From positions 4,843 to 68,842 of the forward strand of contig CAZJDY010000020.1 of assembly GCA_964544915.1 (NCBI GenBank): a DNA stretch of 64,000 bases, written 5' to 3'. This stretch comes from an uncultured Methanomassiliicoccaceae archaeon. Lineage in GTDB: Archaea; Thermoplasmatota; Thermoplasmata; Methanomassiliicoccales; JACIVX01. Below, piece by piece: positions 27,853 to 44,410 of the stretch (positions within the stretch are counted from its first letter, which is position 1; the number at the start of each line of letters is the position of its first letter). Position numbers and translations under genes: made by a program. A model generated the notes under the pieces. The model saw only the letters and a list, made by a program, of their open reading frames with translations, did not search any database and had not been told where the DNA came from.

Positions 27853-29103
27853 TTGAAAACTGGCATGTGGGAAACAGGAGGAAGGTTATTGCCCGAGGAT
27901 AGTGTTCCGATTTGGCAGGTCATCGAGGAGTTTAAGGACAAGATCAAGACGCAGGAAGTCGAGCTCAAGAAGCGAAGGGACGAACTCGACGTCCGCGACG
28001 CGGAGCTGAAGGAGCGGAAGAGGCTCCTCGACGAGCACGCGCAGAAGCTCGAGTCGAAAGGGAAGGAACTCGAAAAGCGCGAGGGCGAGCTGGTCCCGCG
28101 CGAGACCGAAGTCGCAAAGGTTGAGGCCGACCTTCGGACGATGTCGGCCGAGCTGAAGGAAAGGGACGGTGAGCTGCGCGCCGGAAGGCTCGGGCTCGAA
28201 AAACGCGAGCGTGAAATCACCCAGCAGGAAGGGGAAGTCCATAGGCTCACGGAGCAGACGAGCTCCTACGAGGGCAAGATAAAGCAGATGACCGACAGGA
28301 TCTCAGCGACTGAAGAGAAGCTTCTCGGCGAGGAACGGGAGATCAGGAAGATGCTCGACGATATCTCTTCGAAGAGGGAGGAGTTGCTCGCGAAAATCAA
28401 GGTCGTCGCGGAACAGGAAGGCCTTCTGGCGGAGAGCAAGCAGGTCGTCATGGACGAGCAGAAGAGATTCGTGGAGTGGGAGAGGATACTCAACGACCGC
28501 GAGGCGACGCTGAGCGAGCGCGAGAGGATACTGGTGAGGAAGGAGACGCGGGTTCCCGAGACGGTCGAGGTCAAGGAGAACATCTGTTCCAAGTGTGGTA
28601 GTGTTATTCCAGAGGGGTCTGACATTTGTTTGGCCTGCGTGGCTTTGGAGGCCGAGGCTAAGAGAGCCGAAGAAGAAGCTGCGAATAGGGTTGCAGAAGA
28701 GGAGGCAAGGAAGGCCGCCGAGGAAGAAGCCAGGAAGGCGGTGGAGGCTACCCAGGTTCAAGCGGCCACGGAAGTGGCGTCTGTGCTAGTGCCGGAGCCA
28801 GCACCGGTCGTAGTCGAGCGACCGGCTGCAGAACCGGTCGTTGAAGCTCAGCCCGAGCAGGTAGAAGCTTCGAAAGAGGAGCCCGCCCAGGAAGTGGTGA
28901 CGATTGAGAAGAGCTGCCCCAACTGTCGTACTATCGTTGACGCGAACGCGGAGAAGTGCTATGCCTGCGGAGCGGACCTGAGGGGAGTGGCCGAGGCGAA
29001 GGAGGAGGGGGTGCCCGCGGAGGAGAAGCTCGCGGACGAATCACAGAAGGGCCCGGAAGTGAAGCGGTCGGTGTCGATAAGAAGGATCATACGAAGAAAA
29101 TAA
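27853..29103 (+). CDS. Coiled-coil protein with two zinc ribbons and an acidic Ala/Glu/Pro linker
   Basis: About 230 aa of heptad-like K/E/R/L-rich sequence is followed by CSKCGSVIPEGSDICLAC, an AEEEARKA low-complexity stretch, CPNCRTIVDANAEKCYACG and a basic tail. Alternative ATG at 27865. Confidence 0.65.
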   Translation: MKTGMWETGGRLLPEDSVPIWQVIEEFKDKIKTQEVELKKRRDELDVRDAELKERKRLLDEHAQKLESKGKELEKREGELVPRETEVAKVEADLRTMSAELKERDGELRAGRLGLEKREREITQQEGEVHRLTEQTSSYEGKIKQMTDRISATEEKLLGEEREIRKMLDDISSKREELLAKIKVVAEQEGLLAESKQVVMDEQKRFVEWERILNDREATLSERERILVRKETRVPETVEVKENICSKCGSVIPEGSDICLACVALEAEAKRAEEEAANRVAEEEARKAAEEEARKAVEATQVQAATEVASVLVPEPAPVVVERPAAEPVVEAQPEQVEASKEEPAQEVVTIEKSCPNCRTIVDANAEKCYACGADLRGVAEAKEEGVPAEEKLADESQKGPEVKRSVSIRRIIRRK

Positions 29104-29300: not shown

Positions 29301-29344
29301 GTCATGCTCCTACTTTATTGCCAGTAAATGTACCAGGTGGGATA

Positions 29345-32300
29345 ATGAGATTAAGTGTTCTGGCGAGCAAAGCAGCTAGCTTTCTGATTGTGTGGAGCAT
29401 GATGTTCTCCTCATTTGCCGGCCTTATCGTGCTGGGAATACCAGGCGTTGGCCAGGCAGTGCTGCCGTCCGAGTATTCGAATGGCGATATGATAATTGGT
29501 ACCGATTACACGATCTCGAATTGGGCTATCAACAATCGGGTCGAATACATGGACGGGAACCTGACGATCCGCTCCGGAGGTGTCGTAACGATCACCAACG
29601 GAGGACTGAGCTTCACTCAGGATACTGGTCCAGACGGGATCGCCGGGACTTCCGATGACCATGTCTATACCCTCATCGTCGAGGACGGCGGCACGCTCGT
29701 CCTTGAGAAATCGATTCTGACCACCCACCTGGATCAGCGGAACGATTTCCCAAGTCTTGGCGTCATTGTTAGGAACGGAGGGGCGTTGGAGGCCAGGAAT
29801 TCAACACTTAAGTTCCCCGGTCACATGGTCGTCGATGATTCGACACTCATGATGTGGAATGCGACCGTCACTGGGCAGGACCCGACCGACATTGTAGAAT
29901 TCTGCAACCAGACGCAGTTCCAGTCTGACGCGTTCGACGATTCTCCGGTAATGCTGTTCGTTTCAAGTGTCGTCAATATCTACGATTCAGAGATCAATGG
30001 ATTGTTCGAGAACACCACCGGGGTGCCGCCTGCTTCTTTGTACAACCATTCATATAGCTTCGCTTCCGACGACGGAGACAGATCGGTAGTAACATATAAT
30101 ATCACAAGGACTGTCGCCGCTATAGGTGCAGGAAACCCGTCGGGTCAACTACTTGCGAACCTCACGATGGACGATTCGAGGCTTTTCGCAGTAGGGTCAG
30201 GCCAGCGGCTATTGACTTCTGGCATCGACGCAGCGGGCCTCGCGTTCTCAGGGACTTCCGGTGTGGTTGTCACATTGCATGCGAAGTACAAGACGGACGC
30301 AGGATATACGGGTTCGAATCCTATCCAATGGCAATACAACAAAGGACCTCTGAGATCTAGTGGAATCGTGCCTGCAGATACATCGTCGCCGTTTGGACCG
30401 AATCTGGAGGTAACCAGATATGCCAAGTTGCCAGCGATGTCTTCCGCGGATTTGAGCGGTCTGAACATCTCATTCGCAAACAGCGTCGCGAACAGGGTTT
30501 ACTTCAACAGACTGTGGGTCACCGTCGAGATGCCGATCCAGACCTTCCGGAATCTGACGCTTGCCGGATCGACGCAAATGACAGCTGTCAATTCCTACAT
30601 TTCGACCGACTTCTCAAACGATCCACTCGTGCACAATCAATTGGCCGTTCTTGACAACGCCGACGCCTATCTGTACGGCGTCTCCGCAGACATGTCTCAG
30701 ACCGCGTCACCCTCATTCGATCGCCGACCTGCGTACTCGACATCTGACAGAGCATTCAGCGCGACACCTTCAGCACTGGGGTCTGGAAATACTGCAGCAG
30801 GAGAATCGATTGCCAACCTCACTGCCAATGATAATAGATACTTCAACGTGAACAGTGGAGAGAGAATGGCGATTGATGGATTCAATGTCAGCAATCTAGT
30901 TGGTGAGATTTCCAATGCTGTACTCAATGTGATATACCTTACAGAATCTGGATATACAACAAGGACGTACGTCAATTGGAGTCTCGAGGGAGGCGCTCTC
31001 CAGAACACCTCTATTCAACCAGTCAACATCGGTGCGGAGACCCTGGCCTCATTCAACCTATACAATGCAGGAGTGCGCACGCTGAGTGATATCGCTCAGT
31101 TGAATGTTGCCTTCGATGACAGAGGAGGTCTATTCGTATATTTCGAGAGAGTCTGGATCGAGGTAACCCTAAGACCAAACATCTATGTGTACCGGTGGAT
31201 GAACTTCAAAGCCGTTGATTCGCAGTCCTTGCCGGTGCAGGGTGCGTGGGTGAACGCGACAGTGTCGGCTTCTGGTACCGCTGCGTACTACTACACTCCG
31301 TCAGGAGTGATAGGCGCACCGCCCACCGAGGTTCTTGACTACCTCGGAAAGGACGTTACCAGCTACAAGCGCACGAATCCATACGGCTCAGCAATGATAC
31401 CTCTGTTCTGGGAAATTGTCAATGAATCCACTATGCCGAATTCAGGGGTGCTGGGAGGGTATGACCTCAACGTGACTTACAGGAATGTCACAAGCGTTAT
31501 GTACTACTACACAACCGGTGTGAGCTTCGCACCATATCCAGCGCTTTCAGAGGCGGACCAGACCAAAGCGGTTACGGTAACACTGTCCAGTCTGGTGCTT
31601 GACAAGCCGGACTTGGTCGTCACAGCCCTGACTGCTCTGCCAACGACAGTATACGAGGACGACACGGTAACATTGACAGCGACGGCGGCGAACAACGGGC
31701 TAACGGCCGCGACCGATGTCCTGGTGACCTTCACGGACTTCTTCGGAGGCACGCTGACTGAGATCTCAAATGCAACTATTCCGTTCATGTTAGGCGCTTC
31801 GTCGACAGACGTGGTCGTGAGCTGGTCAAACACTCTACCGGGCGTTCACACCATAACCGCGAGAGTAGATCCTTTCGACAATGTCATCGAACGGAGTGAA
31901 TCGAACAACGAGCTATCGATTCAGGTCAATGTTCTGGCAAACCTACCCGAGCTGTCGATCGTCTCGAGCGACATCGTGATCGATCCTCAACCTGCCTATA
32001 CCGGCGCACAGGTCTTCGCGAACGCGACCATTCGCAACACACTCGGAAGAGCCAATGCAATAAACGCAGTCGTTGAGTTCTACATAGGCAACCCGATGAG
32101 CGGCGGACAGTTACTTGGATCGACGAGTGTCAATGTTCCAGCTGGAGGGTCGAACGTCTCCAGCTTCGAGTGGGTTCCGTCTCAGATTGGCGAGTACTCG
32201 ATTTATGTCTATGTCAACCGTTTAAGGGCAATCACAGAGTACGACTTCACAAACAACCTTGCATCCACGGACGTTATCGTTGAACTCTCGACAAACGAGT

Positions 32301-34912
32301 TCGACTTCGTCGTGGACGACAACAACATTGTGACCCTAGCAGGAACCGTGTTCCTGTGGGGTGCGAACATTATTGTGAAGGATAACGGCACACTGATTCT
32401 CAGCGATGTGGACCTTGTCCTAGTGCAGTCATCTGGGGACCAGTTCCTAATAATCATACAGGACAACGGTACCCTGATCTTGAACCAATCTCTCATCACA
32501 TCCGACTACAGCTTGAGGCTGTATCTATTCGACCACGCCTCTCTGGTGGTGACAAATGGCTCGATAATGAATCCGGTCGTCACCATCATTGCTGAAGACC
32601 AGTCCCGCATCGACATTGAATCTTCCACTGTGCACGCTGACATAATCGCACCTACAAAATCGAGCGTCGTCATGAATGCAGCGAACACTACATTCGGTCG
32701 CACCTGGTCCTCGTTCGGAGGGAACGCTGCGGCCTATCTGACGAACGTCAGCATACCCTCGCTCTCACCAGTAGACGGAGCGGTCGTCTACCACTACAGA
32801 TGGATAGTGGTGACCGTCGTCGACGGCAAGGGCGCCCCACTGCCTGGAGCCTTTGTCAACCTAGAGCATTACTTGAATGGAACGGTATCTGGTACTGGCA
32901 ACTCCGGTTCGAACGGACGGATAATGTTCCGTGCCCTCTGTGACAAGATCACGGCATCCTCAATGACTTACTTCGGCAGTTATCGATTGAACGCGACGTA
33001 CTGGTTCGACGATGTGGCTTACGAGACTGACGGATACACGACTGCATCCCTTGAGCCGTATTCAGTGCCGTTGACTCGCGATGTCATCATCTCCACCCTA
33101 ACGATACCGGACGCTGTAAGGGGGCCCGCGGATCTGGTGGCTCTGAGCATAGTGTTCACGCCGGCTAGTAGTCCGGTCAGCGTCAATACTCATCTCCTGA
33201 TGGACGCGAGAGCGGACAACATCGGTGAGACCGAGGCGTCGAACGTGGTCGTAAGGTTCTGGCTCGGAGCCGTGGGGACCGGGACGGTCATCGACGAGGT
33301 CACAGTGCCACTGATTAACCCAGGAGAGACCATTGTAGCCACAGGTGAGTGGGATGCTTCGGTCGATGTCGATCAGAAACTCCAGACCAGGACGATAGCG
33401 GTCGAGTTCAATCCAGGCCAGATCATAACTGAGATCTCGTATGCCAACAACATTGTCACACAGTCGATCCTTGTGGTCGATAGACGCCCCGATTTTGTGT
33501 TCCCAGACGGCATTGAAGTGACATCTGGTGGACACGTGACCGAGCAAGCTGTCGTCGGAGAATCCGTGGTCCTGGGCACTCAGGTTGAGAACGATGGATA
33601 CACATCTGCGATGGGCGTCGTGGTTGCCTTCTACATAATGGACTCTGACGGTCTGACGACGTACCTTGGAATGATCACGACGGATATCGCCAACAACGCC
33701 ACGGTCAACGCAAACCTGACTTGGGCGGTCAACACCACAAGTTTCGGACAGTTCGACCTGAAGATAGTGGTGAATCCGCTTGGATTGAAGGAGGAAGGGA
33801 ACTATGGCAACAATGAGATAACTGCGCAGTTCCAGATCAACGTGCCGAACCCGGTTATTGTCATCAACCTGAATGGCGTGTTCAGCTACAAGGCCGGCAC
33901 CGACGTGGTGGTCAGCGGTACGATAACCAACGAGATCAGTGGTGAACCCCTCATCGGTAGGCCCGTGTGGGTCAGTCTCGTGGATGCGTCCGGTAATGTC
34001 ATAGGTTCCAACGCGACTTCAACGACCACGTCGTCAGGCAGCTTCCAGACATCCAAGTACATCCCCCTAGGAGAGGAGGGAGACTACGAGATTCGAGTGA
34101 CGGTCCAGATCGGAGATCAGACATTCAGCAACAGCCAGGACATAACCGTCAATAGGGGCTTCATAGAGACGCCGACTGATTGGTGGATCTATGCAATCAT
34201 AATCGCCATAGTCGCCGCGATCATCATCTTCTTCTCGGTGTACCTATACAAGTACGGCCTGGGCAAGATGGTCGAGTGCGGCGAGTGCGGCGCCCTCATA
34301 CCAGAGTCCTCTAAGCGCTGCCCGAAGTGCGGCGTGGAGTTCGAGGCAGGAACGGCCAAGTGCAGCGAGTGCGGTGCTTGGATACCTGCGAGCTCGGGCG
34401 AGTGTCCGGAGTGCGGTGCGAAGTTCGTCACGGCCCCGATCCCGGAGGAAGAGGACGAATACATGAAGAAGATGAGGGAGCAGTACCAGCAGTTCGTGGA
34501 CGGATACAGGGAGCAGGCCAAGGGCGTATTAGGGAAGAAGTTCTCGGAGGCGAAGTTCGCTGACTGGTGGAAGAAGCAGCCCAGCCACACAACCTTCGAG
34601 AAGTGGCTGTCCCAGGAGGAGGAGCGCCGGAAGCTAGGTGCGTTCGCCTGCCCTGTCTGCGGCACGCTGAACCCAAGAGGTGCGAAGGTCTGCCACAAGT
34701 GCGGTACCGTCTTCGAGACTCCGAAGGAGGCCCCGAAGGAAGAGGGCGAAGAGGAAGGGAAGCCGAGGCTGAGGAGGATCGTCAAGAGGCCGGTGGAGAA
34801 GAAGGTCCTGAAGAAGGCTGAAGAGGCACCGGCGGAAGAGAGATCCTATGAGCAGCCCGGAGCACCGCCAGAGGAAGAGAGCTCCAAGGATGAGGAACCG
34901 AAGACCACATAG
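29345..34912 (+). CDS. Giant (1856 aa from the ATG at 29345; 1864 aa in the ORF track) type I membrane surface protein with beta-helix-like and CARDB-like regions, a C-terminal transmembrane helix and a cytoplasmic triple zinc-ribbon tail
   Basis: N-terminal hydrophobic signal (ASFLIVWSMMFSSFAGLIVLGIPGVGQA). Parallel-beta-helix-like repeats occur in two places (LTIRSGGVVTITNGG, VEDGGTLVLEKS, VRNGGALEARNS and again IVKDNGTLILSD, IQDNGTLILNQS). At least four CARDB-like modules are present (e.g. KPDLVVTALTALPTTVYEDDTVTLTATAANNG), with numerous NxS/T sequons. The transmembrane helix is WWIYAIIIAIVAAIIIFFSVYLY at 34181-34249. Three CxxC-x(n)-CxxC ribbons and a K/E-rich tail follow. Confidence 0.8.
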   Translation: MRLSVLASKAASFLIVWSMMFSSFAGLIVLGIPGVGQAVLPSEYSNGDMIIGTDYTISNWAINNRVEYMDGNLTIRSGGVVTITNGGLSFTQDTGPDGIAGTSDDHVYTLIVEDGGTLVLEKSILTTHLDQRNDFPSLGVIVRNGGALEARNSTLKFPGHMVVDDSTLMMWNATVTGQDPTDIVEFCNQTQFQSDAFDDSPVMLFVSSVVNIYDSEINGLFENTTGVPPASLYNHSYSFASDDGDRSVVTYNITRTVAAIGAGNPSGQLLANLTMDDSRLFAVGSGQRLLTSGIDAAGLAFSGTSGVVVTLHAKYKTDAGYTGSNPIQWQYNKGPLRSSGIVPADTSSPFGPNLEVTRYAKLPAMSSADLSGLNISFANSVANRVYFNRLWVTVEMPIQTFRNLTLAGSTQMTAVNSYISTDFSNDPLVHNQLAVLDNADAYLYGVSADMSQTASPSFDRRPAYSTSDRAFSATPSALGSGNTAAGESIANLTANDNRYFNVNSGERMAIDGFNVSNLVGEISNAVLNVIYLTESGYTTRTYVNWSLEGGALQNTSIQPVNIGAETLASFNLYNAGVRTLSDIAQLNVAFDDRGGLFVYFERVWIEVTLRPNIYVYRWMNFKAVDSQSLPVQGAWVNATVSASGTAAYYYTPSGVIGAPPTEVLDYLGKDVTSYKRTNPYGSAMIPLFWEIVNESTMPNSGVLGGYDLNVTYRNVTSVMYYYTTGVSFAPYPALSEADQTKAVTVTLSSLVLDKPDLVVTALTALPTTVYEDDTVTLTATAANNGLTAATDVLVTFTDFFGGTLTEISNATIPFMLGASSTDVVVSWSNTLPGVHTITARVDPFDNVIERSESNNELSIQVNVLANLPELSIVSSDIVIDPQPAYTGAQVFANATIRNTLGRANAINAVVEFYIGNPMSGGQLLGSTSVNVPAGGSNVSSFEWVPSQIGEYSIYVYVNRLRAITEYDFTNNLASTDVIVELSTNEFDFVVDDNNIVTLAGTVFLWGANIIVKDNGTLILSDVDLVLVQSSGDQFLIIIQDNGTLILNQSLITSDYSLRLYLFDHASLVVTNGSIMNPVVTIIAEDQSRIDIESSTVHADIIAPTKSSVVMNAANTTFGRTWSSFGGNAAAYLTNVSIPSLSPVDGAVVYHYRWIVVTVVDGKGAPLPGAFVNLEHYLNGTVSGTGNSGSNGRIMFRALCDKITASSMTYFGSYRLNATYWFDDVAYETDGYTTASLEPYSVPLTRDVIISTLTIPDAVRGPADLVALSIVFTPASSPVSVNTHLLMDARADNIGETEASNVVVRFWLGAVGTGTVIDEVTVPLINPGETIVATGEWDASVDVDQKLQTRTIAVEFNPGQIITEISYANNIVTQSILVVDRRPDFVFPDGIEVTSGGHVTEQAVVGESVVLGTQVENDGYTSAMGVVVAFYIMDSDGLTTYLGMITTDIANNATVNANLTWAVNTTSFGQFDLKIVVNPLGLKEEGNYGNNEITAQFQINVPNPVIVINLNGVFSYKAGTDVVVSGTITNEISGEPLIGRPVWVSLVDASGNVIGSNATSTTTSSGSFQTSKYIPLGEEGDYEIRVTVQIGDQTFSNSQDITVNRGFIETPTDWWIYAIIIAIVAAIIIFFSVYLYKYGLGKMVECGECGALIPESSKRCPKCGVEFEAGTAKCSECGAWIPASSGECPECGAKFVTAPIPEEEDEYMKKMREQYQQFVDGYREQAKGVLGKKFSEAKFADWWKKQPSHTTFEKWLSQEEERRKLGAFACPVCGTLNPRGAKVCHKCGTVFETPKEAPKEEGEEEGKPRLRRIVKRPVEKKVLKKAEEAPAEERSYEQPGAPPEEESSKDEEPKTT
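30113..30535 (+). repeat. Copy 1 of an internally duplicated ~135-140-aa module inside the giant protein (protein-level repeat)
   Basis: AIGAGNPSGQLLANLTMDDSRLFAVGSGQRL...LSGLNISFANSVANRVYFNRLWVTVEMP aligns by eye with copy 2. Confidence 0.6.
30773..31175 (+). repeat. Copy 2 of the internally duplicated module inside the giant protein
   Basis: ALGSGNTAAGESIANLTANDNRYFNVNSGERM...IAQLNVAFDDRGGLFVYFERVWIEVTLRP. Anchors shared with copy 1 are G.GN, ANLT..D.R.F.V.SG.R and N..F......VYF.R.W..V. Confidence 0.6.
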
Positions 34913-35048: not shown

Positions 35049-35098
35049 GGGCGGCGCAATTCAAATTGCCGCGCCGCCGCGCGGTCAAAATGAAAAAA
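35049..35098 (-). terminator. GC-rich imperfect hairpin plus T-runs (minus strand) downstream of the filament operon
   Basis: On the minus strand the TAA stop at 35115-35117 is followed by CCCTTTTTTCATTTT and then the inverted repeat GGCGGCGCGGCAA/TTGCGCCGCC. Confidence 0.4.
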
Positions 35099-35114
35099 GG
35101 GAAACGTCCGATTA

Positions 35115-36803
35115 CTAAGTCATTTTCTCCCTTATTTCTTTGACAGTCCTCTCGGGGTCCTTGTAATATGCCGAGATTATGTTTGCGACCTGCTTGTAGT
35201 TGTCGACGCCTATCTTCTTCATGTACTCGAGGATGTCAACCCTGCGCTTCACCTCGCGCTCCATCTCCCTCGGGGACCAGTTCCTTATCGCCCTGACCTT
35301 CTCGTATACATAGGAGTGCCCGCTGAAGTTGAACGTATCGTCCGCGGGGTTCCAAGTGTGGACGGCGTTCGTGATGAGCTCTCCGGTCTCCGGGTCCATG
35401 CCGACGATCTCGGTCAGGGATTTGACCCTCCTCGTCATCTTCGTGCCTACTTTTACCTGCGCTTGTAGGAGCACGATGTCGAGCGCCGTCAGCAATGCTC
35501 TCGGGAGGTTGATTGGGTCGTTCTCCATCCTGTGCACCATCGCCTGAACGTCCTCTGCGTGGAAGGTCGAATAGGCGGTCTTGCCGGTCGCCATCGCCTG
35601 GAATACGACGTAGGCCTCCTTGCCTCTGACCTCACCAACCATTAGGTACTGAGGTCTCTGCCTCAGCGCGGTCGTCAATAGCTCGAACATGTCAATCGTG
35701 CCGGTCTTGCCGCCGCCCCTGCCGCCAAAGCCCTCTCTTGTGAGGGACGGAATCCAGTTCTCGTGAGGCAGGTTGAGCTCCCTGGTGTCCTCGATGCTGA
35801 CAATCTTCATTTGTGGCGGTATGAACAGCAATACTGCGTTCAAAGTCGTCGTCTTGCCGCTCGCGGTACCTCCGCAGACGAGCATCGAGCTACCGTATTC
35901 GGTAGCGATCCAAAGATAGGCCATCATGTCAGTGCTCATCGTTCTGAATTTGAGCAGATCGATCGGGGTGAACGGGTTCTCCTTGAAGCGTCTGATCGTG
36001 AAGGACGATCCCCTCTTCGTGACGTACTTTCCTAGGGTCGCATTGAGCCTCGAGCCGTCCGGTATGGTAGCGTCAAGTAACGGGTCAGCGACGGATATGT
36101 GCTTTCCGCACTTCTGTGCCAACCAGACGACGAACGCGTCGAGTTCCATCTCCTTCTCGAATCTGATGTTCGATCTGATCGATCCGTATTTTCTGTGGTA
36201 GATGTAAAGTGGAATGTCAACCCCGTCGCAAGAGCAGTCCTCAACGTTCGGGTCGGTCATCATGACATCTATTGCACCATATCCGATGAAGTCCCTCCGG
36301 AGAAAGTATATGATCCTGTCCTTCGACACCGGGTGGAGTGTCACGCCGAACGTTTTCATGAGGGTATCTGTCGCCTTGTTTAGGATATTATCCTTCTCGA
36401 CGGCCGACTCGATCTCCGCCAGGTTCAGCGTCATTATGAGTGCGTTCTTGAGCAGCTCCAGAAGGTTGCGTTCGTCTCCAGACAGGTTCGGCTCGATTAC
36501 CTCATAGAGGTACTCTCCTCCGACGTTGTCGTACCTTATCCGTACGAACGAGTAGGGGTCCATGATCTTCGAGATCTCGACCTCGTCGACTCCGGGGTCC
36601 GATATCTTCGGTATCTCTGTTATGACGTCGAGCGGTCCTTTGTTGACCTCGGATGGAATCATGATCTTCATCGGTTTGCTCTTCAGCTTGAGCAAGAATG
36701 AAAGGTATCTGCTTGAGAACCCGCCGCCTGACCTTCTCTCCTTTGCTTCCTCTTCAGCTCTCTCCTCAGGGAGAGGTCCTTCCATTCTAGCGGCATCTGT
36801 CAT
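35115..36803 (-). CDS. FlaI/ArlI-TadA (GspE/VirB11) family secretion ATPase, paralogue 1
   Basis: Walker A GGTASGKTT, EDTRELNLPHENWIP, Walker B region LMVGEVRGKE, and FQAMATGKTAYSTFHA. Confidence 0.9.
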   Translation of the reverse strand: MTDAARMEGPLPEERAEEEAKERRSGGGFSSRYLSFLLKLKSKPMKIMIPSEVNKGPLDVITEIPKISDPGVDEVEISKIMDPYSFVRIRYDNVGGEYLYEVIEPNLSGDERNLLELLKNALIMTLNLAEIESAVEKDNILNKATDTLMKTFGVTLHPVSKDRIIYFLRRDFIGYGAIDVMMTDPNVEDCSCDGVDIPLYIYHRKYGSIRSNIRFEKEMELDAFVVWLAQKCGKHISVADPLLDATIPDGSRLNATLGKYVTKRGSSFTIRRFKENPFTPIDLLKFRTMSTDMMAYLWIATEYGSSMLVCGGTASGKTTTLNAVLLFIPPQMKIVSIEDTRELNLPHENWIPSLTREGFGGRGGGKTGTIDMFELLTTALRQRPQYLMVGEVRGKEAYVVFQAMATGKTAYSTFHAEDVQAMVHRMENDPINLPRALLTALDIVLLQAQVKVGTKMTRRVKSLTEIVGMDPETGELITNAVHTWNPADDTFNFSGHSYVYEKVRAIRNWSPREMEREVKRRVDILEYMKKIGVDNYKQVANIISAYYKDPERTVKEIREKMT

Positions 36804-36806
36804 TCT

Positions 36807-37757
36807 CTATCCTCCTATGACTCTCGTTCCGATAAAGCCGATGGCTAACATGATGAAGCTGTGCCTTAGTCCATTGGTGATTCTGCCATCCTGGAGGACA
36901 CCTGCGAGGATGCCGTCACCGAAAGCATGGAGTACTACCGCAATCACGAAGATCAACTGGACCTGCGGGATGACTTTGGTCTGTATGGTTGCTGGCATAT
37001 TCGTTATGCCAGCCGCTTCGGCGCCCTCTGCGACCTGCTGGCCCGCTTCCGCCATCTTCGGCAGGAAGGTCGAGTTCAGGATGAATATCGTCGCAATGAA
37101 CACCATGAACGCGATGTAGATGACGACCATGTATGTCGACATGGCTATCTTCCTCTCGTTCTCGTTAAGCATCGTCTCCCTCGCGTCGTGGGCGACCATT
37201 GTGAGGACATCCGCGACGCTTCCGCCGGCATCGTTCGCCTTGATAATGATTGACATCATCCTGTTGACGAGGGGCGTGTTCACCCTCTCTGCAAACAGGC
37301 GAATCGCATCGGCTGCCGGTACTCCCCAGTCTATCTGAGCGGCCATCCTCTTTATCTCTGGCGTCAGTTTGCCGTACCTGCCTCTAGATGAGACCTTGAT
37401 CGCCTCGGCCAATGTCATGCCGAATCGCCCAGCTTCGGCCACATCTCTGAGGAAATCCGGCAGTCTAGACTCTATTTCCTTTATCTTCTTGTGACGGGAG
37501 GTCATGTAGAAGCCATACGGTCCACTCATCGCCATTAGTCCGAAGGCGAGGAAGTCTATCCATTCTAGACCGGTGCTTAGTCCTCCGATGGCGTCCAGGA
37601 ATCCCACAAAGAACAGTACGACTGCTATGACGACACCCACTATGAGGATTATCCTGGCATAATCCCTCTTGTTCGTCTTGAGCTGGTCGATGTCTAGGAT
37701 TCGCTCCTTCTTGCCCTCCTTCTTCTTCTCTTTCCCCTTCCTAGCCATCCCGATCAC
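36807..37757 (-). CDS. Single T2SSF-domain membrane protein (FlaJ/TadC-like, C-terminal-half equivalent)
   Basis: 316 aa. A cytoplasmic helical domain (LAEAIKVSSRGRYGKLTPEIKRMAAQIDWGVPAADAIRLFAERV...DAGGSVADVL) is flanked by transmembrane helices. There is a 3-nt spacer to each neighbouring gene. Confidence 0.75.
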   Translation of the reverse strand: MIGMARKGKEKKKEGKKERILDIDQLKTNKRDYARIILIVGVVIAVVLFFVGFLDAIGGLSTGLEWIDFLAFGLMAMSGPYGFYMTSRHKKIKEIESRLPDFLRDVAEAGRFGMTLAEAIKVSSRGRYGKLTPEIKRMAAQIDWGVPAADAIRLFAERVNTPLVNRMMSIIIKANDAGGSVADVLTMVAHDARETMLNENERKIAMSTYMVVIYIAFMVFIATIFILNSTFLPKMAEAGQQVAEGAEAAGITNMPATIQTKVIPQVQLIFVIAVVLHAFGDGILAGVLQDGRITNGLRHSFIMLAIGFIGTRVIGG

Positions 37758-37760
37758 CCC

Positions 37761-38801
37761 TCATAGGCTGGTCTCCTTGGTAATGTTCCATATGAAGAAG
37801 ATGAATCCGAACTGGGAGATTGGAATCATCAGTCCGACCACCGCATAGAGGAGGGTGATGGTCATGTCCGATGAGCCCCCTCCGCCAGGAACGATTGCCA
37901 TTATCGCCATGATGACGACAAGAAACAAAGGAAATGCGACGACGACAGTGACGAAGGACTCGGCCATAAGACCAAGGGTCTCGAGCTGCGAGCGCATCTC
38001 AAGCTTGCCCTCCTTCTCGAACTGCTCCGCCTTCTGCAGGAAGTAAGGTTTCAGCTGACCGCCGGAAGTGGAGGTCGTGACGACACCCTGTAGGAACTCC
38101 TGAAATCTGGAGGACGGGGTTCTCTGGGCCGCATTGTTTATCGCAGTCAGTATGTCGATCCCGAGGAGTTCTGTGTCCCTCGTGATCCACTCTGCCTCAT
38201 CCCTGATCTCGCCGTAAATCTCTTGCCTCGAAAGTTCCTTGAAAATGACGTCGACGTTGACATCTGCGGATGCCATCGCGGAAATGAAGCTCATCGCAGG
38301 GCCGATTCTCTTGTCTATGTCCCTGCCCCTGCGCTTCGCCTTCGACGCCGGCTGCGAGATCAGGACGACGTACGCCAGCATCGGGGGTATAGCAACCATA
38401 AGCACGAGTCCGACCAGGACGAGCGCGGCGTCGATCTTCAGGAAGCTCAGGATGATGCCGCCCATGAGAACAGCGACGACCCCGGCCACGGCGCCGACGA
38501 GTATGGTCGTCATCCAGACGTAAGCCACATATTCCTCCGTTCGCATCTTCATGTGGGCCTGGAGCAGGCTCTGTTCGAGCTTGGGGTTCGGTTTAGCTTT
38601 CAGTTTCACAAACGCTCCCAAAGTCCTCCAGCAGAACTCCTGATACTTCGTGAGCTTGATGTAATCTGGAATAGCGCCCTGGGGAAGCCTGACAACGTGG
38701 GGGCCGGCGATCTCAGGCTTATCTTCCGCCCTCTTGGTCTTCAGATACGACTTCTTCGAGGCCTCTAATCTCGCAAATATGTCAGAGACTTCGGGCGCCA
38801 A
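37761..38801 (-). CDS. Single T2SSF-domain membrane protein (FlaJ/TadC-like, N-terminal-half equivalent)
   Basis: 346 aa with the same transmembrane-helix/helical-domain/transmembrane-helix layout (ISAMASADVNVDVIFKELS...AINNAAQRTPSSRFQEFLQGVVTTSTSGGQL). The predicted TTG start overlaps the upstream ATPase by 20 nt. Confidence 0.7.
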   Translation of the reverse strand: MAPEVSDIFARLEASKKSYLKTKRAEDKPEIAGPHVVRLPQGAIPDYIKLTKYQEFCWRTLGAFVKLKAKPNPKLEQSLLQAHMKMRTEEYVAYVWMTTILVGAVAGVVAVLMGGIILSFLKIDAALVLVGLVLMVAIPPMLAYVVLISQPASKAKRRGRDIDKRIGPAMSFISAMASADVNVDVIFKELSRQEIYGEIRDEAEWITRDTELLGIDILTAINNAAQRTPSSRFQEFLQGVVTTSTSGGQLKPYFLQKAEQFEKEGKLEMRSQLETLGLMAESFVTVVVAFPLFLVVIMAIMAIVPGGGGSSDMTITLLYAVVGLMIPISQFGFIFFIWNITKETSL

Positions 38802-40572
38802 CCTGCGTCACCCCCTCATTCATTTCCCTGCGTACCCTCTTTATTGTCTTGTCAGGGTCCTTGTAGTAGCTGTTGATGAGCCCCCAAAGCTTCCTATGGT
38901 CAGTGACGTCCTTCTGGACCATGTACTTGACGATGTCAGTCCGTCTGTTGAACTCGTCCATCATCTCCTCGTGAGTGAGGCTTTTCATCTCCATGATTTT
39001 GTCGAACAGGAAGCTGTGGCCTTTGTAGATGAACTTGTCAGTGGCCTGGTCCCACTCGTAGACGGTGTTCGTGATGAGCTCGTTGGTTTCGGGCTCGAAA
39101 CCGACGATTTCGATGACCTGTTTGATCCTCCTAACTAAGTCAGTCCCGACTCTCGCGTGGGTCTGGATGACGACATTCCTAAGTGCTGTGAGTAGGATTC
39201 GCGGGCAGTTGATCGGTGGGTTCTCGAGCCTGTTTACCATCGACTTGATCGAGTCTGCGTGCATTGTAGAGTAAGTGGTGTGGCCGGTGGCCATCGCCTG
39301 GAACATGATGTATGTCTCTTTGCCCCTGACTTCACCTACGATGATGTAGTTGGGGCGCTGCCTCAGGGAGGCCCTGACGAGGTCGTACATGTCGATCTCC
39401 CCGGCCATTCTCCCGTCCGCGTCTCGCTCCCCCACGCCGGTCCTCGTCGCACCAGGTATCCAGTTATCGTGCGGTAGGTTGATCTCCCTTGTGTCTTCCA
39501 TAGTGACCACTTTGGCCCCTGGAGGAATGAACAATGCGATCGAATTCAGCGTGGCGGTCTTGCCGCTGGCGGTTCCGCCAGCTATGATTGCGGACTCTCC
39601 GTTCTCGACACCCAACCAGAAGTATGCGACCATCTCCGGACTCGCCGTACCGAACTTGACAAGCTCTACAGGAGTGAACGGTTTCTCCTTGAAGCGTCTG
39701 ATCGTGAATGTAGACCCTCTTGTCGTCACTTCCCTCGAATAGGTCGCTTGGACACGGTGACCTTCGGGAGTGGTGCCATCGAGGATCGGGTTCGACACCG
39801 ATATCTGCTTGCCGCATCTCTGTCCCAGGGCAACTACGTATGAGTTGAGCGCGTCCTCATCGTTGAAGATCAGACTGGTCTTTATGCTCTCATATTTCCT
39901 GTGGAAGACGAAAAGTGGAATGCCGACTCCGTCGCACGAGATATCCTCAACGTTCTCGTCCTTCATGATGGCGTCGACCCGCCCATATCCGACAAAGTCC
40001 CTGGTTATGTAGTACCCTATCTTCTTCCGAGCGAGAGGATTAATCCTTACTCCTCGGCTCTTGATGTAACTCTCGACGCTCCCCTCGAGGTACTCTTCCT
40101 TGTCGAGCTCGGTAAGCTTGACCCACTCATATCCCAGTGTCCTCTTGAAGGTGTCTTTTATCAGGTCGAGCAGTCTCTCCTCCTTTTCCGTCAGCTTCGG
40201 TTCTATCATGTCCAGGACGTACTCGCTCGTTTCCTTGTTGAAAGTCACCCGGACGAAGCTGAAAGGATCCACTACCGGGTAGATCTCAGCGACCTCGATG
40301 TTGGGATTGTCGATCTTCGGGATTTCTGTGATGACAGAGCCCCTGCCCTTTGACCATTCGATTCTCTGGGCTATCTCGCCCATGGGGAGTCTTACCCTGG
40401 ACGCCCTATTCGGAGCGACCTTTCGGAGGAACTTCAAATAGGAATCCCTCATCTTGTTCGTGACCTTCGATTCGCCCTGGAAATCCTCCGCCGATTCTTT
40501 CCCGGAGACGACTTCCGCCTCACTCGACTGGTCGCCTTCTGTCATCTTTCCAGCTTCAGCTTCCTGCATCAT
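38782..40572 (-). CDS. FlaI/ArlI-TadA family secretion ATPase, paralogue 2
   Basis: Walker A GGTASGKTA, EDTREINLPHDNWIP, IIVGEVRGKE, and FQAMATGHTTYSTMHA. The acidic N-terminal extension differs from paralogue 1. Confidence 0.9.
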   Translation of the reverse strand: MMQEAEAGKMTEGDQSSEAEVVSGKESAEDFQGESKVTNKMRDSYLKFLRKVAPNRASRVRLPMGEIAQRIEWSKGRGSVITEIPKIDNPNIEVAEIYPVVDPFSFVRVTFNKETSEYVLDMIEPKLTEKEERLLDLIKDTFKRTLGYEWVKLTELDKEEYLEGSVESYIKSRGVRINPLARKKIGYYITRDFVGYGRVDAIMKDENVEDISCDGVGIPLFVFHRKYESIKTSLIFNDEDALNSYVVALGQRCGKQISVSNPILDGTTPEGHRVQATYSREVTTRGSTFTIRRFKEKPFTPVELVKFGTASPEMVAYFWLGVENGESAIIAGGTASGKTATLNSIALFIPPGAKVVTMEDTREINLPHDNWIPGATRTGVGERDADGRMAGEIDMYDLVRASLRQRPNYIIVGEVRGKETYIMFQAMATGHTTYSTMHADSIKSMVNRLENPPINCPRILLTALRNVVIQTHARVGTDLVRRIKQVIEIVGFEPETNELITNTVYEWDQATDKFIYKGHSFLFDKIMEMKSLTHEEMMDEFNRRTDIVKYMVQKDVTDHRKLWGLINSYYKDPDKTIKRVRREMNEGVTQVGARSL

Positions 40573-40587
40573 TACACCGCTTCAATG

Positions 40588-41514
40588 TCAGATCTGAACC
40601 CCGACGTTCACGAATGCTCGGTTATAAGTCATCATCCCAGCGTTCACTATCTTAAGTGTGACAGTGTGGACGTTGTCGTTCACCGGCAGATCCCTTATGG
40701 AGTAATCTCCTGAGCTCAGGGAGTAATCTCCTAAGATCAGTCCGGCCTTCGAGCACAGGTCGCCAAGGTATTGTTGCCATGCCGTCCAATAGCGGGTCGT
40801 AAGGGTGATGTTGACGTACTTGTCGGTCAAGTATCCAACGGCATAGTCCTGGGAATCGATGTACACGAGGTTCAGATTCAGGCCAACAGTGCCGGTCCCG
40901 CCGACACTTGCGTTGGTCCCTATGAAGTCAATCTGAGTGAACTTGATGTTGATCGCCGATCCAATCTTCTCGACCTCCAAGCTAGGGTATGCCCTAATGA
41001 TCTGACCGTCCTGTTGCTTGACGATCATCGCACCGTTCTCGTACGCCACCCACTGCTGGACGTAATACCTGTTTGGAGCGTACAGCTCCACCATGCCGCC
41101 TCCAGACTCCGACACGCTCGTCTTGGAGCCCTCAAGCGAATAGTTGAAGCATACCTTGACGCCCGAATCACCCATCCCCTGGGGCGAGTACGTCAGCAAT
41201 CCGGCGGTCGGGGAAGCGAAAACCGGTATCCCTGCCGCGCCGAGAGGTATCGGCGAGTACATGTGGATCGAGGTGGAACCAGTCACTTGAGCAGTGACGA
41301 TCAGGTTGTCGATCTTCCCTTTGAGGTCACCGAACTGATTGATCGCCTGGCTCATATGTGCTCTCTCATTGTCCTGCATCCACACAGGAATGTAAGAGTT
41401 GGTGAACATTGAAAGGAATGTCATGAATACCAGCAGGGCCATGATCGTACCCACGGTCGACGCGACACCTTCCTCGTCGCGTCTCAAGAAGTGACGCTTG
41501 TCTAGCCTAGTCAT
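40588..41514 (-). CDS. Archaeal type IV pilin-like protein (class III signal-peptide-like N-terminus plus a large beta-rich domain)
   Basis: MTRLDKRHFLRRDEEGVASTVGTIMALLVFMTFLSMF has a charged leader, G|VAS, then a hydrophobic helix, as in archaeal prepilins. It is the first gene of the operon. The ORF could extend to 41550. Confidence 0.6.
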   Translation of the reverse strand: MTRLDKRHFLRRDEEGVASTVGTIMALLVFMTFLSMFTNSYIPVWMQDNERAHMSQAINQFGDLKGKIDNLIVTAQVTGSTSIHMYSPIPLGAAGIPVFASPTAGLLTYSPQGMGDSGVKVCFNYSLEGSKTSVSESGGGMVELYAPNRYYVQQWVAYENGAMIVKQQDGQIIRAYPSLEVEKIGSAINIKFTQIDFIGTNASVGGTGTVGLNLNLVYIDSQDYAVGYLTDKYVNITLTTRYWTAWQQYLGDLCSKAGLILGDYSLSSGDYSIRDLPVNDNVHTVTLKIVNAGMMTYNRAFVNVGVQI

Positions 41515-41787
41515 TCGACGTCCCTCACGGGAACCGAACATACCCTCCACCAGTGACCCAGTTCCTTCGGGTGAAAATGAGCAACATATAACTATTTAAA
41601 CATGTCGTGGTTGCTGGCTTGAATTGAGAACGACGTTCAGGAACGCGTTGTCCGATGCTTTCTCGGTGCCTATCGACGAGTTGAATATCGAGATAGGCGC
41701 CGGCACCAGCGACGTCATTCGAAAGGTCACGGAATGGCAGATCTGGGGAAAAAGACCTACGGCATCCAGATTCGTCAATAAGTAAGC

Positions 41788-41820: not shown

Positions 41821-41912
41821 GCCGCGGTAACTCAGTTGGGAGAGTGCAAGACTGAAGTTCCTGCATGGGAGCGGATATCTTGAAGTCGCTGGTTCAAATC
41901 CGGCCCGCGGCA
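41821..41912 (+). tRNA. tRNA-Phe(GAA) with a canonical 19-nt intron after position 37 (41858-41876); CCA not encoded
   Basis: Hand fold: acceptor GCCGCGG/CCGCGGC, D-arm ACTC-AGTTGGGA-GAGT, anticodon stem CAAGA/TCTTG with CTGAAG[intron]A, T-arm GCTGG-TTCAAAT-CCGGC and discriminator A. Confidence 0.85.
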
Positions 41913-41992
41913 CATCAACGCACAAATGAAACGCCCTGTCTCGCCTCCAGTAATGGTCGAAATGTCTATTATCTAAATGAGCGATTGGTCTA

Positions 41993-42430
41993 TTGGGCGC
42001 GATGATGCAGGTCAAGGGATTCGAAACAAACATGATCGAGGCGAAGAGATTCTCGAAGTCCGGCGAACGGATCTCGAACGTCAGAATTGACCAGAACAGC
42101 TCCGTAACTCAGATTTCGAGGGTCGCAGAGGATACCGCGTCGGTCGAGTTCAGGTTTACCGCGAACTACGTCGGGATGGGATACATCAAGATCGAGGGTC
42201 AGATAATGCTCTCTGGGGAGGTCGAGGGCCTCGTGGACGAATGGTCAAAGAAGAACTCCATGCCTGACGAAGCGGCGAACCTTGTTCACAACATGATAGT
42301 TTCGAACTGCATCCCCACTGCTCTGCTGGTTTCCCGCGACATCAGGCTTCCCCCGCCGTTCCCGCTCCCGAGGGTCAATATCCAAAAGAAAACTGCGAGA
42401 GGCCCAGGAGAGAGCGTAGAAGTCGCCTGA
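41993..42430 (+). CDS. Hypothetical small protein with a SecB-like C-terminal pattern
   Basis: 145-aa ORF; ATG alternatives at 42002/42005. The C-terminus NCIPTALLVSRDIRLPPPFPLPRVNI resembles the SecB segment CPNILFPYARE...FPQLNLAPVNF. The similarity is weak and judged by eye only. Confidence 0.4.
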   Translation: MGAMMQVKGFETNMIEAKRFSKSGERISNVRIDQNSSVTQISRVAEDTASVEFRFTANYVGMGYIKIEGQIMLSGEVEGLVDEWSKKNSMPDEAANLVHNMIVSNCIPTALLVSRDIRLPPPFPLPRVNIQKKTARGPGESVEVA

Positions 42431-42457: not shown

Positions 42458-44410
42458 TCAGCGAATGTGTTCCAAGGCGAATGAACCGATTGTCAGGCCG
42501 TGCTTGCTCGAAGTGTACCTTATGTAAGTCCTTGATTGCACGTCGGATATGCCACTGACCGCGAAGAAGGTTCTCAGCTGGTCAACCTTGAAGTCGATCA
42601 TTCCGTCCATGATGGATCCGAGCATCTGGATTTCCTGCTCACCGTGCACCCCCTTCTCGACTGTGAAGAGCGCGACAGCCTTGTCTCTTTTCCTCCGGCC
42701 GCAGAACGGACTCAAGAACCTGAACGCGGTATTTGGGTCAGAATAAGCTATGAGCGTCGAGATGGATCTGAATGCGAGGCGGTACGATTCATGCTTATCT
42801 TTGTACACCTTCGCGATTTTCTCGACGTTGTCCATAATCGTGTCATGGTCGGTCGGCTCGTCGATATAAATCGTGTAAGGGTCGTCGGTCGTCTCTCCCA
42901 TGCTCCTTGAATAGGAATCGACATATTTCACGAGGCCCAGCTTCTCATATTCCTCGTATCCAGATAGCACGTAGTTCATCTCTTCTCTAATGTCGTGGGG
43001 AGTCTTGTCGGTGAGTACCCACAACACCGGCAGCCCTTTCTTGAGTCCCTCTGCCATGAATTGGTTCACCATCACCTCTTTTCCGACGAAGGGTGGACCG
43101 TGAATCAGAATGTTCGATCCGAACGGGATGCCTCCGAGTAGCAGATCGTCGAGACGATCATTGCCGGTCTTCACCTTCGCCTGTTGCACCTCGAGCGCCC
43201 TATCCTGCTCTTTCGCTGATATCTCGTCCTCTATTACGCCTTGCTCTCTACGGCGCAACTCCTCCATTTTCGCGTTGAGATACTTCTCCTTTGCCCGGAT
43301 CTCCTCCTCTTTTCTCTGGATATCCGCCTTGAGATCCTCGAGACGCTTCTTCAGTTCCAGCTCGTCCAGACCAGAGAGCTGTTTCTTCATCTCATCGAAT
43401 CTGCGGTGCTCCTCTGAAAGCACCTTCTCCCTGTGGAACAGATCTTCCTCTCTCCGGAGGATTTCTTCTTCTTTGTATGAGACGACGGACTTGATCTTCG
43501 AAAGCTCATCATCCTTCTCTCGATTCTCTGTTCTGAGCTTCTCGATTTCTGCGTCCTTCAACATGATGGATTTTTCTTTGAGCTGCAAATCTCTGATTCT
43601 TTCCTGAATCTCTCTCTCCGCTTCGGGGCCGGTCATTCGCGCGATCTTCAACTCGCTTTCCAGGAGTCTGTCGTCGATTGCCTTCTGTTTCAGGTCCTGT
43701 TCAAGCCTGTCGACTTTCGCCAGCAACTCCTGCTCTCTACGCTGGAACTCAAGGTCCTTTCCTCTGAGCTCCGCGTGGAATCTCTCCTCGAGGTCATTCT
43801 CGTCGGCGGCCGAGATCGTCTTGTTCTTCAGCGTCACTTCCTTTTCTGACACAGCGGTCTCTCTGGTGGAAAGCTCCTTTTCGAGCTCCTTCAGTTCAAC
43901 TTCCTTCCGGATGATGGAAGCCCGGTCCTCAGGCAAGTTGCCAAGGGAACTTTCGAACTGGCTCTTGAGCGCCTCCCTCATTTCCCTGGCGTTCTCAAGT
44001 TCTTTCAGAAGTCTCGTGTTCTCGTTTGAGAGCCCGCGCAACTTCTTGGTCGTCTCTGGATCCGTCACTCCCGTGCTCTCTCCCCTCTCCCTCATCTCAC
44101 CTATTTCCTTCCTCAGACGGGTTAGCTTGTCCTCGTAATCCGTGACCTTCTCCTTCAAAGTCAGTTGGTCTTCCTGTGCCTCCGATTCCCCTCCGATTTC
44201 GACATCCGAGTTTATCGGAAGCTCGGGCTCGGCACCTTCGTTCAACCAAGAGAGAAGACTCTCCTCGCCGCTCAACCATTTCTTCAGATCGTCGATTCTC
44301 TCTGCGGCCACCCCATTTGAGCCGTTCTGACCAGTCTCGCCAGTGGATTCGTTGGAATCATTCGGTGCTCCCTGATAGTCCAGGTTGCCACCCTCTGATT
44401 TCTTTTGCAC
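42458..44410 (-). CDS. Coiled-coil protein fused to a C-terminal KaiC/RecA-like ATPase domain with a deviant Walker A
   Basis: Residues ~60-400 are K/E/L/R-rich heptad-like sequence. The C-terminal ~245 aa read LLLGGIPFGSNILIHGPPFVGKEVMVNQF...LWVLTDKTP...SISTLI...DGMIDF, which is KaiC-like. The P-loop is GPPFVGKE, with Glu where Ser/Thr is expected. Confidence 0.75.
   Translation of the reverse strand: MQKKSEGGNLDYQGAPNDSNESTGETGQNGSNGVAAERIDDLKKWLSGEESLLSWLNEGAEPELPINSDVEIGGESEAQEDQLTLKEKVTDYEDKLTRLRKEIGEMRERGESTGVTDPETTKKLRGLSNENTRLLKELENAREMREALKSQFESSLGNLPEDRASIIRKEVELKELEKELSTRETAVSEKEVTLKNKTISAADENDLEERFHAELRGKDLEFQRREQELLAKVDRLEQDLKQKAIDDRLLESELKIARMTGPEAEREIQERIRDLQLKEKSIMLKDAEIEKLRTENREKDDELSKIKSVVSYKEEEILRREEDLFHREKVLSEEHRRFDEMKKQLSGLDELELKKRLEDLKADIQRKEEEIRAKEKYLNAKMEELRRREQGVIEDEISAKEQDRALEVQQAKVKTGNDRLDDLLLGGIPFGSNILIHGPPFVGKEVMVNQFMAEGLKKGLPVLWVLTDKTPHDIREEMNYVLSGYEEYEKLGLVKYVDSYSRSMGETTDDPYTIYIDEPTDHDTIMDNVEKIAKVYKDKHESYRLAFRSISTLIAYSDPNTAFRFLSPFCGRRKRDKAVALFTVEKGVHGEQEIQMLGSIMDGMIDFKVDQLRTFFAVSGISDVQSRTYIRYTSSKHGLTIGSFALEHIR

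Follow-up and report, generated by a model that had tools for sequence, protein, structure and literature searches.

The 64,000-nucleotide stretch of DNA analysed here as a whole (the window), from an uncultured Methanomassiliicoccaceae archaeon, carries on its minus strand, at positions 35115-41550, a block of five co-directional genes that very probably specifies the membrane-proximal machinery for assembling an adhesive type IV pilus, of the euryarchaeal afGspE/PilB3-like, CdiP-type form of the class Thermoplasmata. From the open reading frame (ORF) listing and translation, the block reads PIL-E2-Fa-Fb-E1, that is, a prepilin-like gene (PIL), two secretion ATPase paralogues (E2 and E1) and, between these, two genes for a divided platform protein (Fa and Fb). 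It is a Methanomassiliicoccales example of a dual-ATPase, split-platform module that entered the literature in 2016 and was characterised in 2025. What is added here is that this layout is the norm in Thermoplasmata, that both motors are equally constrained, and that the gene for a giant CARDB surface protein frequently lies tail-to-tail with the operon.

PIL occupies positions 40588-41514 when read from the ATG at 41514, the start used in public gene calls (308 aa), and positions 40588-41550 as the longest ORF, from a GTG at 41550 (320 aa). It is followed on the same strand by E2 (38782-40572, 596 aa), Fa (37761-38801, 346 aa), Fb (36807-37757, 316 aa) and E1 (35115-36803, 562 aa), with intergenic spacers, in operon order, of 15, -20, 3, and 3 nt; the 20-nt overlap between E2 and Fa is that obtained with the TTG start of Fa. 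Read from the sequence, a candidate archaeal TATA box, TTTAAATA, is present at 41593-41600 on the minus strand, ~80 nt upstream of the ATG at 41514, and an oligo-T tract at 35087-35104, also on the minus strand, follows directly after the E1 stop codon as a candidate operon terminator. A GC-rich inverted repeat comes next after the tract, and the two elements are possibly shared as a terminator with the convergent gene. The five genes may thus form a single transcription unit, which both the TATA-like box and the oligo-T tract fit. Among the window ORFs scanned, none carries an archaellin, ArlC-H or prepilin peptidase domain.

E1 and E2 are apparently active, full-length ATPases of the FlaI/TadA superfamily. 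Pfam matched E1 to T2SSE (3e-31) and PilB3_C (1.6e-07) and E2 to the same two families (1.8e-30 and 5.9e-09), with PilB3_C scores of 31.8 and 36.4 bits for the two ATPases against a cutoff of 27. The two proteins align end to end with 47% identity over 560 residues, and the Walker A, Asp box, Walker B and His box motifs are complete in each. These motifs are also kept among orthologues (Walker A as G-x4-GKT, Asp box as EDTRE, Walker B as GEVRG), being invariant across 73 E1 orthologues and kept across 63 E2 orthologues, so that loss of catalytic residues in one paralogue is ruled out. The top match in the PDB was, for both, the Archaeoglobus fulgidus GspE structure 2OAP (E 1.5e-131 for E1 and 1e-125 for E2), ahead of FlaI (7e-88 and 1e-81) and CpaF (3e-39 and 1e-38). 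Neither ATPase reached the cutoff of 550 for the NCBIfam FlaI/ArlI equivalog NF058587 (434.9 for E1 and 410.2 for E2). Neither carries a PilT signature (pilT_fam, 44.5 and 43.3 bits against a cutoff of 319) or satisfies TIGR03819 (144 and 136 bits against 373), and both fall far below all of the PilB, GspE and BasE NCBIfam cutoffs. Judged by these scores, E1 and E2 are afGspE/PilB3-like enzymes and not archaellum motors. Their nearest public homologues are proteins from Methanomassiliicoccales metagenome-assembled genomes (MAGs), at 70-100% identity, with homologues of E1 listed at 70-93%, and the public annotation of a protein identical to E1 reads 'flagellar protein FlaI'.

Fa and Fb carry one T2SSF domain apiece by Pfam. 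On the 555-position NCBIfam ArlJ profile, Fa covers positions 4-243 and Fb positions 260-542, and they are therefore, in colinear order, the N-terminal (Fa) and C-terminal (Fb) halves of a single two-domain platform protein of the FlaJ/ArlJ/TadC type. Three hydrophobic segments are predicted in Fa. In the window the two genes share a reading frame and are separated only by a TGA and a single GGG codon (37758-37763, minus strand), an arrangement that could be taken for a sequencing error or for read-through. The in-frame TGA is a peculiarity of the window: in 78 related loci, the stop codons of Fa and Fb are spread 25/22/31 over the three possible frame offsets, and no fused Fa-Fb ORF is present in any of 85 related loci; together these counts rule out both explanations. 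The split is a genuine, fixed feature, and because the related loci have no frame preference, the in-frame arrangement in the window looks coincidental and not like programmed read-through.

PIL is the sole window ORF with a convincing class III signal-peptide pattern. Its N-terminus has a basic region followed by RRDEEG↓VASTVGTIMALLVFMTFLSMF, and the sequence after the basic stretch reads G↓VASTVGTIMALLVF, matching a motif, [DEKR]G↓VA(S/A)(T/V)(V/I)GT, that is kept in at least 60 of 68 PIL orthologues. The protein matches Pfam DUF7289 weakly, scoring 30.8 bits where the cutoff is 27. An AlphaFold2 model built with 45 homologues (predicted local distance difference test score, pLDDT, 87.7; predicted template modelling score, pTM, 0.80) has a single long N-terminal helix, residues 6-78, and a beta-rich head, for which Foldseek returned no significant PDB match. 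The predicted fold has the general shape of a type IV pilin, though with a large head, and PIL is probably a minor, initiator or tip pilin encoded by the operon. No PilA-like ORF lies within the 64-kb window, and small PilA-like pilin genes were found near the cluster in just 4 of 85 loci, a scarcity that is consistent with major pilins encoded in trans. By analogy with Cuniculiplasma divulgatum and Haloferax volcanii, the major pilin is probably encoded elsewhere.

A sequence-only reading of the window had described these five packed minus-strand genes as a type IV filament operon with a pilin-like first gene, two full-length ATPase paralogues and a platform in two single-T2SSF genes, lacking archaellins, arlC-G and prepilin peptidase. 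This description is borne out: the coordinates and spacers hold on translation; the T2SSE and T2SSF matches and the conserved class III signal motif identify the operon type; and the end-to-end alignment and the halves of the ArlJ profile establish the paralogues and the split. Among the outcomes that it had named as refuting its claim of novelty were the loss of catalytic residues from one paralogue and a sequencing-error split of the membrane genes. All four motifs are retained in both ATPase clades, and the split is found in all 85 loci.

To place the operon among its relatives, an ATPase alignment was used to scan one genome per species (GTDB representatives), which gave 80 Thermoplasmatota loci with 57-87% identity to E1, from Methanomassiliicoccales, DHVE2 (Aciduliprofundum relatives), Saliniplasma and many other Thermoplasmata MAGs. 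ORFs in 85 loci were classed by BLAST against the window proteins. The order PIL-E2-Fa-Fb-E1 was found in 57 of these, E2-Fa-Fb-E1 in seven, E2-Fa-Fb-E1-PIL in four, PIL-Fa-Fb-E1 in two, PIL-E1-Fa-Fb in two and PIL-E2-E1-Fa-Fb in one; one further locus (L049) reads PIL-Fa-Fb-E1 with E2 8 kb away on the other strand, and the remaining loci are truncated by contig ends. A single ATPase stands beside Fa-Fb in four natural variants (L052, L061, L076, and L080). The relative whose E1 is 78% identical has the same genes, order and wider neighbourhood. Among 60 complete loci, the median identity to the window proteins was 63.8% for E1, 64.6% for E2, 56% for Fa, 56% for Fb and 36% for PIL. These values point to equal constraint on E1 and E2, whose conservation extends over about 60-70 species, and all five proteins are under clear purifying selection. 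Judged by gene order, the dual-ATPase layout is the majority state across many Thermoplasmata lineages and not an outlier, and the DUF7289 prepilin gene belongs to the conserved operon, which is an addition of the present analysis. Three loci from MFD long-read MAGs (L014, L028, and L043), in which the pilus and neighbouring genes are broken into many short ORFs, were left out of the conservation statistics; the breakage most likely reflects assembly indel errors rather than pseudogenisation.

The full dual-ATPase locus was also found in many environmental Methanomassiliicoccales MAGs, some of them labelled Methanomassiliicoccus sp.; the loci L018, L020, L023, and L029 come from Methanomassiliicoccus sp. 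and Methanomethylophilaceae MAGs. According to Makarova et al. 2016, the Methanomassiliicoccus genomes then available were without secretion ATPases (PMC4858521), and the presence of the pilus locus is therefore lineage-dependent within Methanomassiliicoccales.

The closest characterised counterpart is the pilus machinery named CdiP in C. divulgatum, described in 2025 with the ATPases CdiPE1/E2 and the platform proteins CdiPFa/b (PMC12448462). In this organism abundant true pili were imaged and the pilin was identified, no twitching was seen, and the two ATPases were called 'unique' (PMC12448462). Golyshina et al. 2016 had already placed the ATPases CSP5_0712 and CSP5_0715 around TadC CSP5_0713-14, an arrangement said to resemble Aciduliprofundum (PMC5155288). 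When the CdiPFa,b sequence was rebuilt from the supplement of PMC12448462, Fa aligned to its residues 37-304 (32% identity, E 7e-37) and Fb to residues 333-606 (29% identity, E 8e-38). With CdiPFb as the query, Cuniculiplasma contigs were recovered, two of which (L002 and L003) read T2SSE (525 aa)-T2SSF (323)-T2SSF (284)-T2SSE (528) on one strand, and the same order of domains was found on more distant Thermoplasmatota contigs. The window operon and the CdiP cluster thus share a core and its order (ATPase, N-half platform, C-half platform, ATPase), a platform gene boundary at the homologous position, and PilA-like major pilins outside the operon. They differ in that a DUF7289 prepilin-like gene opens the window operon, whereas the Cuniculiplasma loci examined are without one; in that the ATPases are only 39-44% identical; and in their surroundings, with a CARDB giant and KaiC-like genes in the window and unrelated neighbours in Cuniculiplasma. 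Upstream of the cluster in one Cuniculiplasma sp. contig (L002, JBTRZW010000010.1, 2200-7000), a phage-type integrase and ~15 very small ORFs were observed, which suggests that an integrated element adjoins the ATPase-platform cluster there.

The operon also resembles the clade 2 loci defined by Makarova et al. 2016, a clade that includes H. volcanii PilB3-PilC3 (PMC4858521). From that survey, Aciduliprofundum boonei has 'two distinct ATPases ... in the same locus', a pair of tadC-like genes is present at many euryarchaeal loci of clades 1 and 2, and KaiC-family ATPases and S-layer-like proteins accompany clade 1/2 loci; its signature minor pilin, arCOG02911, is a FlaFind-positive, all-beta protein of 250-550 aa (PMC4858521). 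Both window ATPases carry the PilB3_C extension, with afGspE 2OAP as their nearest solved relative, and counterparts are present here of the tadC pair, the KaiC-family ATPases and the S-layer-like neighbour, while PilA pilins are probably trans-encoded here too. PIL, with 308 aa, a signal motif and a beta-rich head, fits the description of arCOG02911. The difference lies in the two secretion ATPases of the window lineage, compared with none in the Methanomassiliicoccus genomes of that survey.

Two adjacent single-T2SSF platform genes beside an ATPase gene are likewise found in the Epd system of Methanococcus maripaludis and in Tad systems, whose split platforms were attributed to gene fission by Denise et al. 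2019 (PMC6668835); the split is common to Epd and Tad, but not exclusive to them (PMC6668835, PMC4858521). Those systems have one secretion ATPase and a TadZ/FlaH-type secondary ATPase, whereas the window operon has a full secretion-ATPase paralogue and no TadZ, and E1 and E2 are far nearer to afGspE (1e-125 to 1e-131) than to CpaF (~1e-39). With the archaellum proteins ArlI and ArlJ, the operon shares the superfamilies of its ATPases and platform, but ArlJ is a single two-domain protein where the window platform is split, and the KaiC-like neighbours score 25-28 bits on ArlH models against a cutoff of 215. Bacterial type IVa pili, with PilB, PilT and PilU, also use more than one secretion-ATPase paralogue per filament machine, but that duplication is independent, and both archaeal paralogues keep the full N-terminal domain.

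These comparisons leave the claim of novelty in the sequence-only reading without support, and the finding that it had named as refuting novelty, a characterised system with the same synteny, has largely come about. It had called the layout non-canonical, and the profile and synteny searches that it proposed confirmed the domains while showing the gene order to be already known and widespread: the same core is present in Cuniculiplasma (PMC12448462, PMC5155288), and the five-gene order in 57 of 85 loci. Its basis for novelty, a norm of one platform gene and one ATPase, falls as well, given the two ATPases of A. boonei (PMC4858521) and the platform fission in Epd and Tad (PMC6668835).

The age of the two ATPases was examined with a neighbour-joining (NJ) tree that combined 148 ATPases taken from the loci with 120 representatives of 50%-identity clusters, and with 100 NJ bootstrap replicates on a 74-taxon subset. 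The E1 and E2 core clades were each monophyletic in 100/100 replicates. Because these separate, fully supported clades run through many species, the duplication is old and predates the divergence of the lineages sampled; a recent tandem duplication is ruled out by the 47% identity together with the same clades. Makarova et al. proposed an 'ancestral clade 2 duplication' (PMC4858521). E1 and E2 stand about as far from each other as from the homologues of other archaea, and a clade uniting the two to the exclusion of those homologues received 3% NJ bootstrap. The upstream ATPase of Thermoplasmatales grouped with E2 (71% NJ bootstrap). By BLAST, the upstream Cuniculiplasma ATPase is closer to E2 (432 bits) than to E1 (408), and the downstream one closer to E1 (423 bits) than to E2 (368). 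The His box reads TFHAED in E1 and in the downstream Thermoplasmatales gene, a form that would be derived, and T(M/I)HADS in E2 and most homologues, which looks ancestral. Between the E1 and E2 clades, 14 positions are fixed differently and 131 identically, and several of the 14 cluster in a motif of the N-terminal domain (PDGSR in E1, PEGHR in E2), with one in the His box. Such substitutions are compatible with subfunctionalisation without loss of activity.

The genes around the operon are themselves partly conserved. Tail-to-tail with E1, on the plus strand at 29318-34912, lies the gene for the CARDB giant, a surface protein of 1864 aa with Pfam CARDB matches in four stretches and zinc ribbons. 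It has an N-terminal signal or anchor, a predicted transmembrane helix at residues 1623-1641 and a cytoplasmic tail of ~220 aa with several CxxC zinc ribbons. In 40 of the 68 loci with enough flank, DHVE2 MAGs included, E1 has a convergent CARDB homologue within 1.6 kb; there is none at the Cuniculiplasma locus. On the other side of the operon, a KaiC/RecA-like ATPase with a coiled-coil N-terminus of ~400 aa (42458-44410, minus strand, 650 aa; Pfam KaiC 8.9e-20) keeps its synteny in 22-23 related loci. Its 28 bits on the ArlH model, for which the cutoff is 215, show that it is not ArlH. Beside it is a conserved orphan ORF (41993-42430, plus strand, 145 aa) without a Pfam, NCBIfam or PDB match. 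Upstream of the CARDB gene, a single-domain KaiC-like ATPase (27120-27821, plus strand, 233 aa; Pfam KaiC 1.4e-36) and a coiled-coil zinc-ribbon protein (27853-29103, plus strand, 416 aa; Pfam zinc ribbons) form a pair that is syntenic in 16-20 related loci. Two KaiC-like ATPases, neither reaching the ArlH cutoff, thus flank the pilus/CARDB block, each beside a conserved partner, and we infer that the CARDB, KaiC-like and zinc-ribbon neighbours are associated with the pilus operon.

Taken together, the operon suggests the following machine. A prepilin peptidase encoded elsewhere would cleave PIL after the conserved Gly; Fa and Fb would form a heterodimer equivalent to one two-domain platform protein; and ATPase hexamers would dock beneath Fa-Fb and use ATP to lift pilins from the membrane into the filament. 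The filament would be built of small PilA-like pilins whose genes lie in other parts of the genome, as they do in C. divulgatum and H. volcanii, with the 308-aa PIL as a minor, priming or tip subunit. E1 and E2 may act as separate homohexamers that alternate on a shared platform and divide the work, for example between priming and elongation or between different pilin sets. Granting the rest of this picture, the two-homohexamer arrangement is our tentative preference, held with a little under half of our belief, because both paralogues are intact, some lineages have one platform-adjacent ATPase, and the divergence between E1 and E2 equals that between either of them and foreign homologues. The four one-ATPase variants, together with the locus in which E2 is unlinked, argue against a strictly obligate cis pair.

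Several points weigh against this picture. The pilus is inferred from relatives and known here from genes alone, with the peptidase and the major pilin outside the 64-kb window; the DUF7289 match of PIL is weak, and nothing in the PDB matches the structure of its head significantly. In loci with one ATPase, the second gene may be located elsewhere in the genome. The orthology of E1 with the downstream Cuniculiplasma/Thermoplasmatales ATPase rests on the BLAST margins and the TFHAED signature, and their grouping received 1% NJ bootstrap. Finally, the computed data do not separate two homohexamers from a heterohexamer or from an assembly/disassembly pair.

A bolder reading, which we consider unlikely, is that the paired motors are not redundant but make up an obligate, functionally specialised two-ATPase engine that was fixed early in Thermoplasmata and is physically coupled, in many lineages, to the CARDB giant and the KaiC-like ATPases. 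Such an engine could join both ATPases in a mixed hexamer, reserve one motor for disassembly or give each pilin class its own motor, and its coupling to the CARDB giant could run through the cytoplasmic zinc-ribbon tail of that protein. If true, the archaeal pilus apparatus here would have parts and a control logic unseen in characterised systems.

Two more specific arrangements of the motors are each less likely than two homohexamers. That E1 and E2 divide extension and retraction between them, as PilB and PilT do in bacteria, and so drive a dynamic pilus and twitching, is an idea raised by the CdiP authors (PMC12448462), and it accords with two conserved, catalytically intact motors on one platform and with conserved paralogue-specific substitutions, some near the nucleotide-binding motif of the N-terminal domain and one in the His box. 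We regard it as doubtful, since both ATPases have the same full architecture (N-terminal domain, ATPase domain, PilB3_C), neither being shortened in the manner of PilT, and score only 44 and 43 bits on pilT_fam against the cutoff of 319. C. divulgatum, moreover, has the same module without twitching (PMC12448462), and Tad (CpaF) and Sulfolobus Aap pili are reported to be bidirectional with one ATPase (PMC11300603; PMC12448462). We are equally sceptical that E1 and E2 make up one obligate heterohexamer, for example 3+3, matching the asymmetric Fa-Fb platform. Their genes co-occur tightly, are equally conserved and flank the platform halves symmetrically, and the platform itself is a heteromer, but L052, L061, L076, and L080 have only one adjacent ATPase, E2 is unlinked in L049, and the paralogues are only 47% identical, about as far apart as from other archaeal homologues.

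It is improbable that the machine builds a short pseudopilus that anchors or assembles surface proteins in the manner of a bindosome or a type II secretion system, with the adjacent CARDB giant as its client. The convergent CARDB-like giant gene after E1 in 40 of 68 loci, the large and atypical form of the only pilin-like gene in the operon, and the co-conserved KaiC-like ATPases and coiled-coil zinc-ribbon proteins would all suit such a role. However, C. divulgatum has the same core, no CARDB neighbour and abundant true pili (PMC12448462); the bindosome models are not approached (BasE, 197 and 207 bits against 1000; BasF, 32 and 47 against 1300); and Makarova et al. 2016 treated S-layer-like neighbours as accessories of PilA-based pili (PMC4858521). 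A degenerate archaellum, or a split platform with an in-frame TGA that is an assembly or sequencing artefact or a pseudogene, would account for the public 'flagellar protein FlaI' label and for the single TGA between the in-frame Fa and Fb, but we give this almost no credence: the equivalog scores, which place both ATPases under the FlaI cutoff and nearer to afGspE, and the missing archaellin and arlC-H genes among the window ORFs scanned rule out an archaellum remnant, and the split recurs in all 85 loci with no frame preference, and the five proteins are under clear purifying selection.

For annotation, genes of this kind that are publicly named 'flagellar protein FlaI/FlaJ' or 'hypothetical' are to be read as a pilus (adhesion) system. 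Such a system implies that environmental members of the Methanomassiliicoccales, for which earlier work had reported a lack of such ATPases, attach to surfaces. Because the dual-ATPase state is the majority one across many Thermoplasmata lineages, with both paralogues equally constrained, the question of why two motors are kept is a general one for Thermoplasmata, for which the natural one-motor variants offer a comparison.

An Rfam scan of the window found two tRNAs and nothing else. The genes (20771-20861 and 41821-41913, both plus strand) are ~90 nt each, a length that suggests introns, and ARAGORN assigned no anticodon to the one at 20771-20861; a tRNA-Phe gene on the opposite strand stands immediately upstream of the pilus operon. 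This adjacent tRNA-Phe, a slight dip in GC content and the integrase beside the Cuniculiplasma locus prompted us to consider a mobile-element origin for the operon, which was ruled out by the wider synteny, from gyrA to deoxyhypusine synthase, that is kept in relatives. Elsewhere in the window, a protein of 743 aa (18446-20677, minus strand) joins a DnaA ATPase domain of the bacterial type (Pfam Bac_DnaA, E 4.6e-60) to a C-terminal DUF835 domain, an unexpected pairing in an archaeon. Two large helicases of the Lhr type are encoded at 7477-12843 (plus strand) and 49501-52254 (minus strand), the longer of which (1788 aa) carries C-terminal AlkZ-like DNA glycosylase domains.

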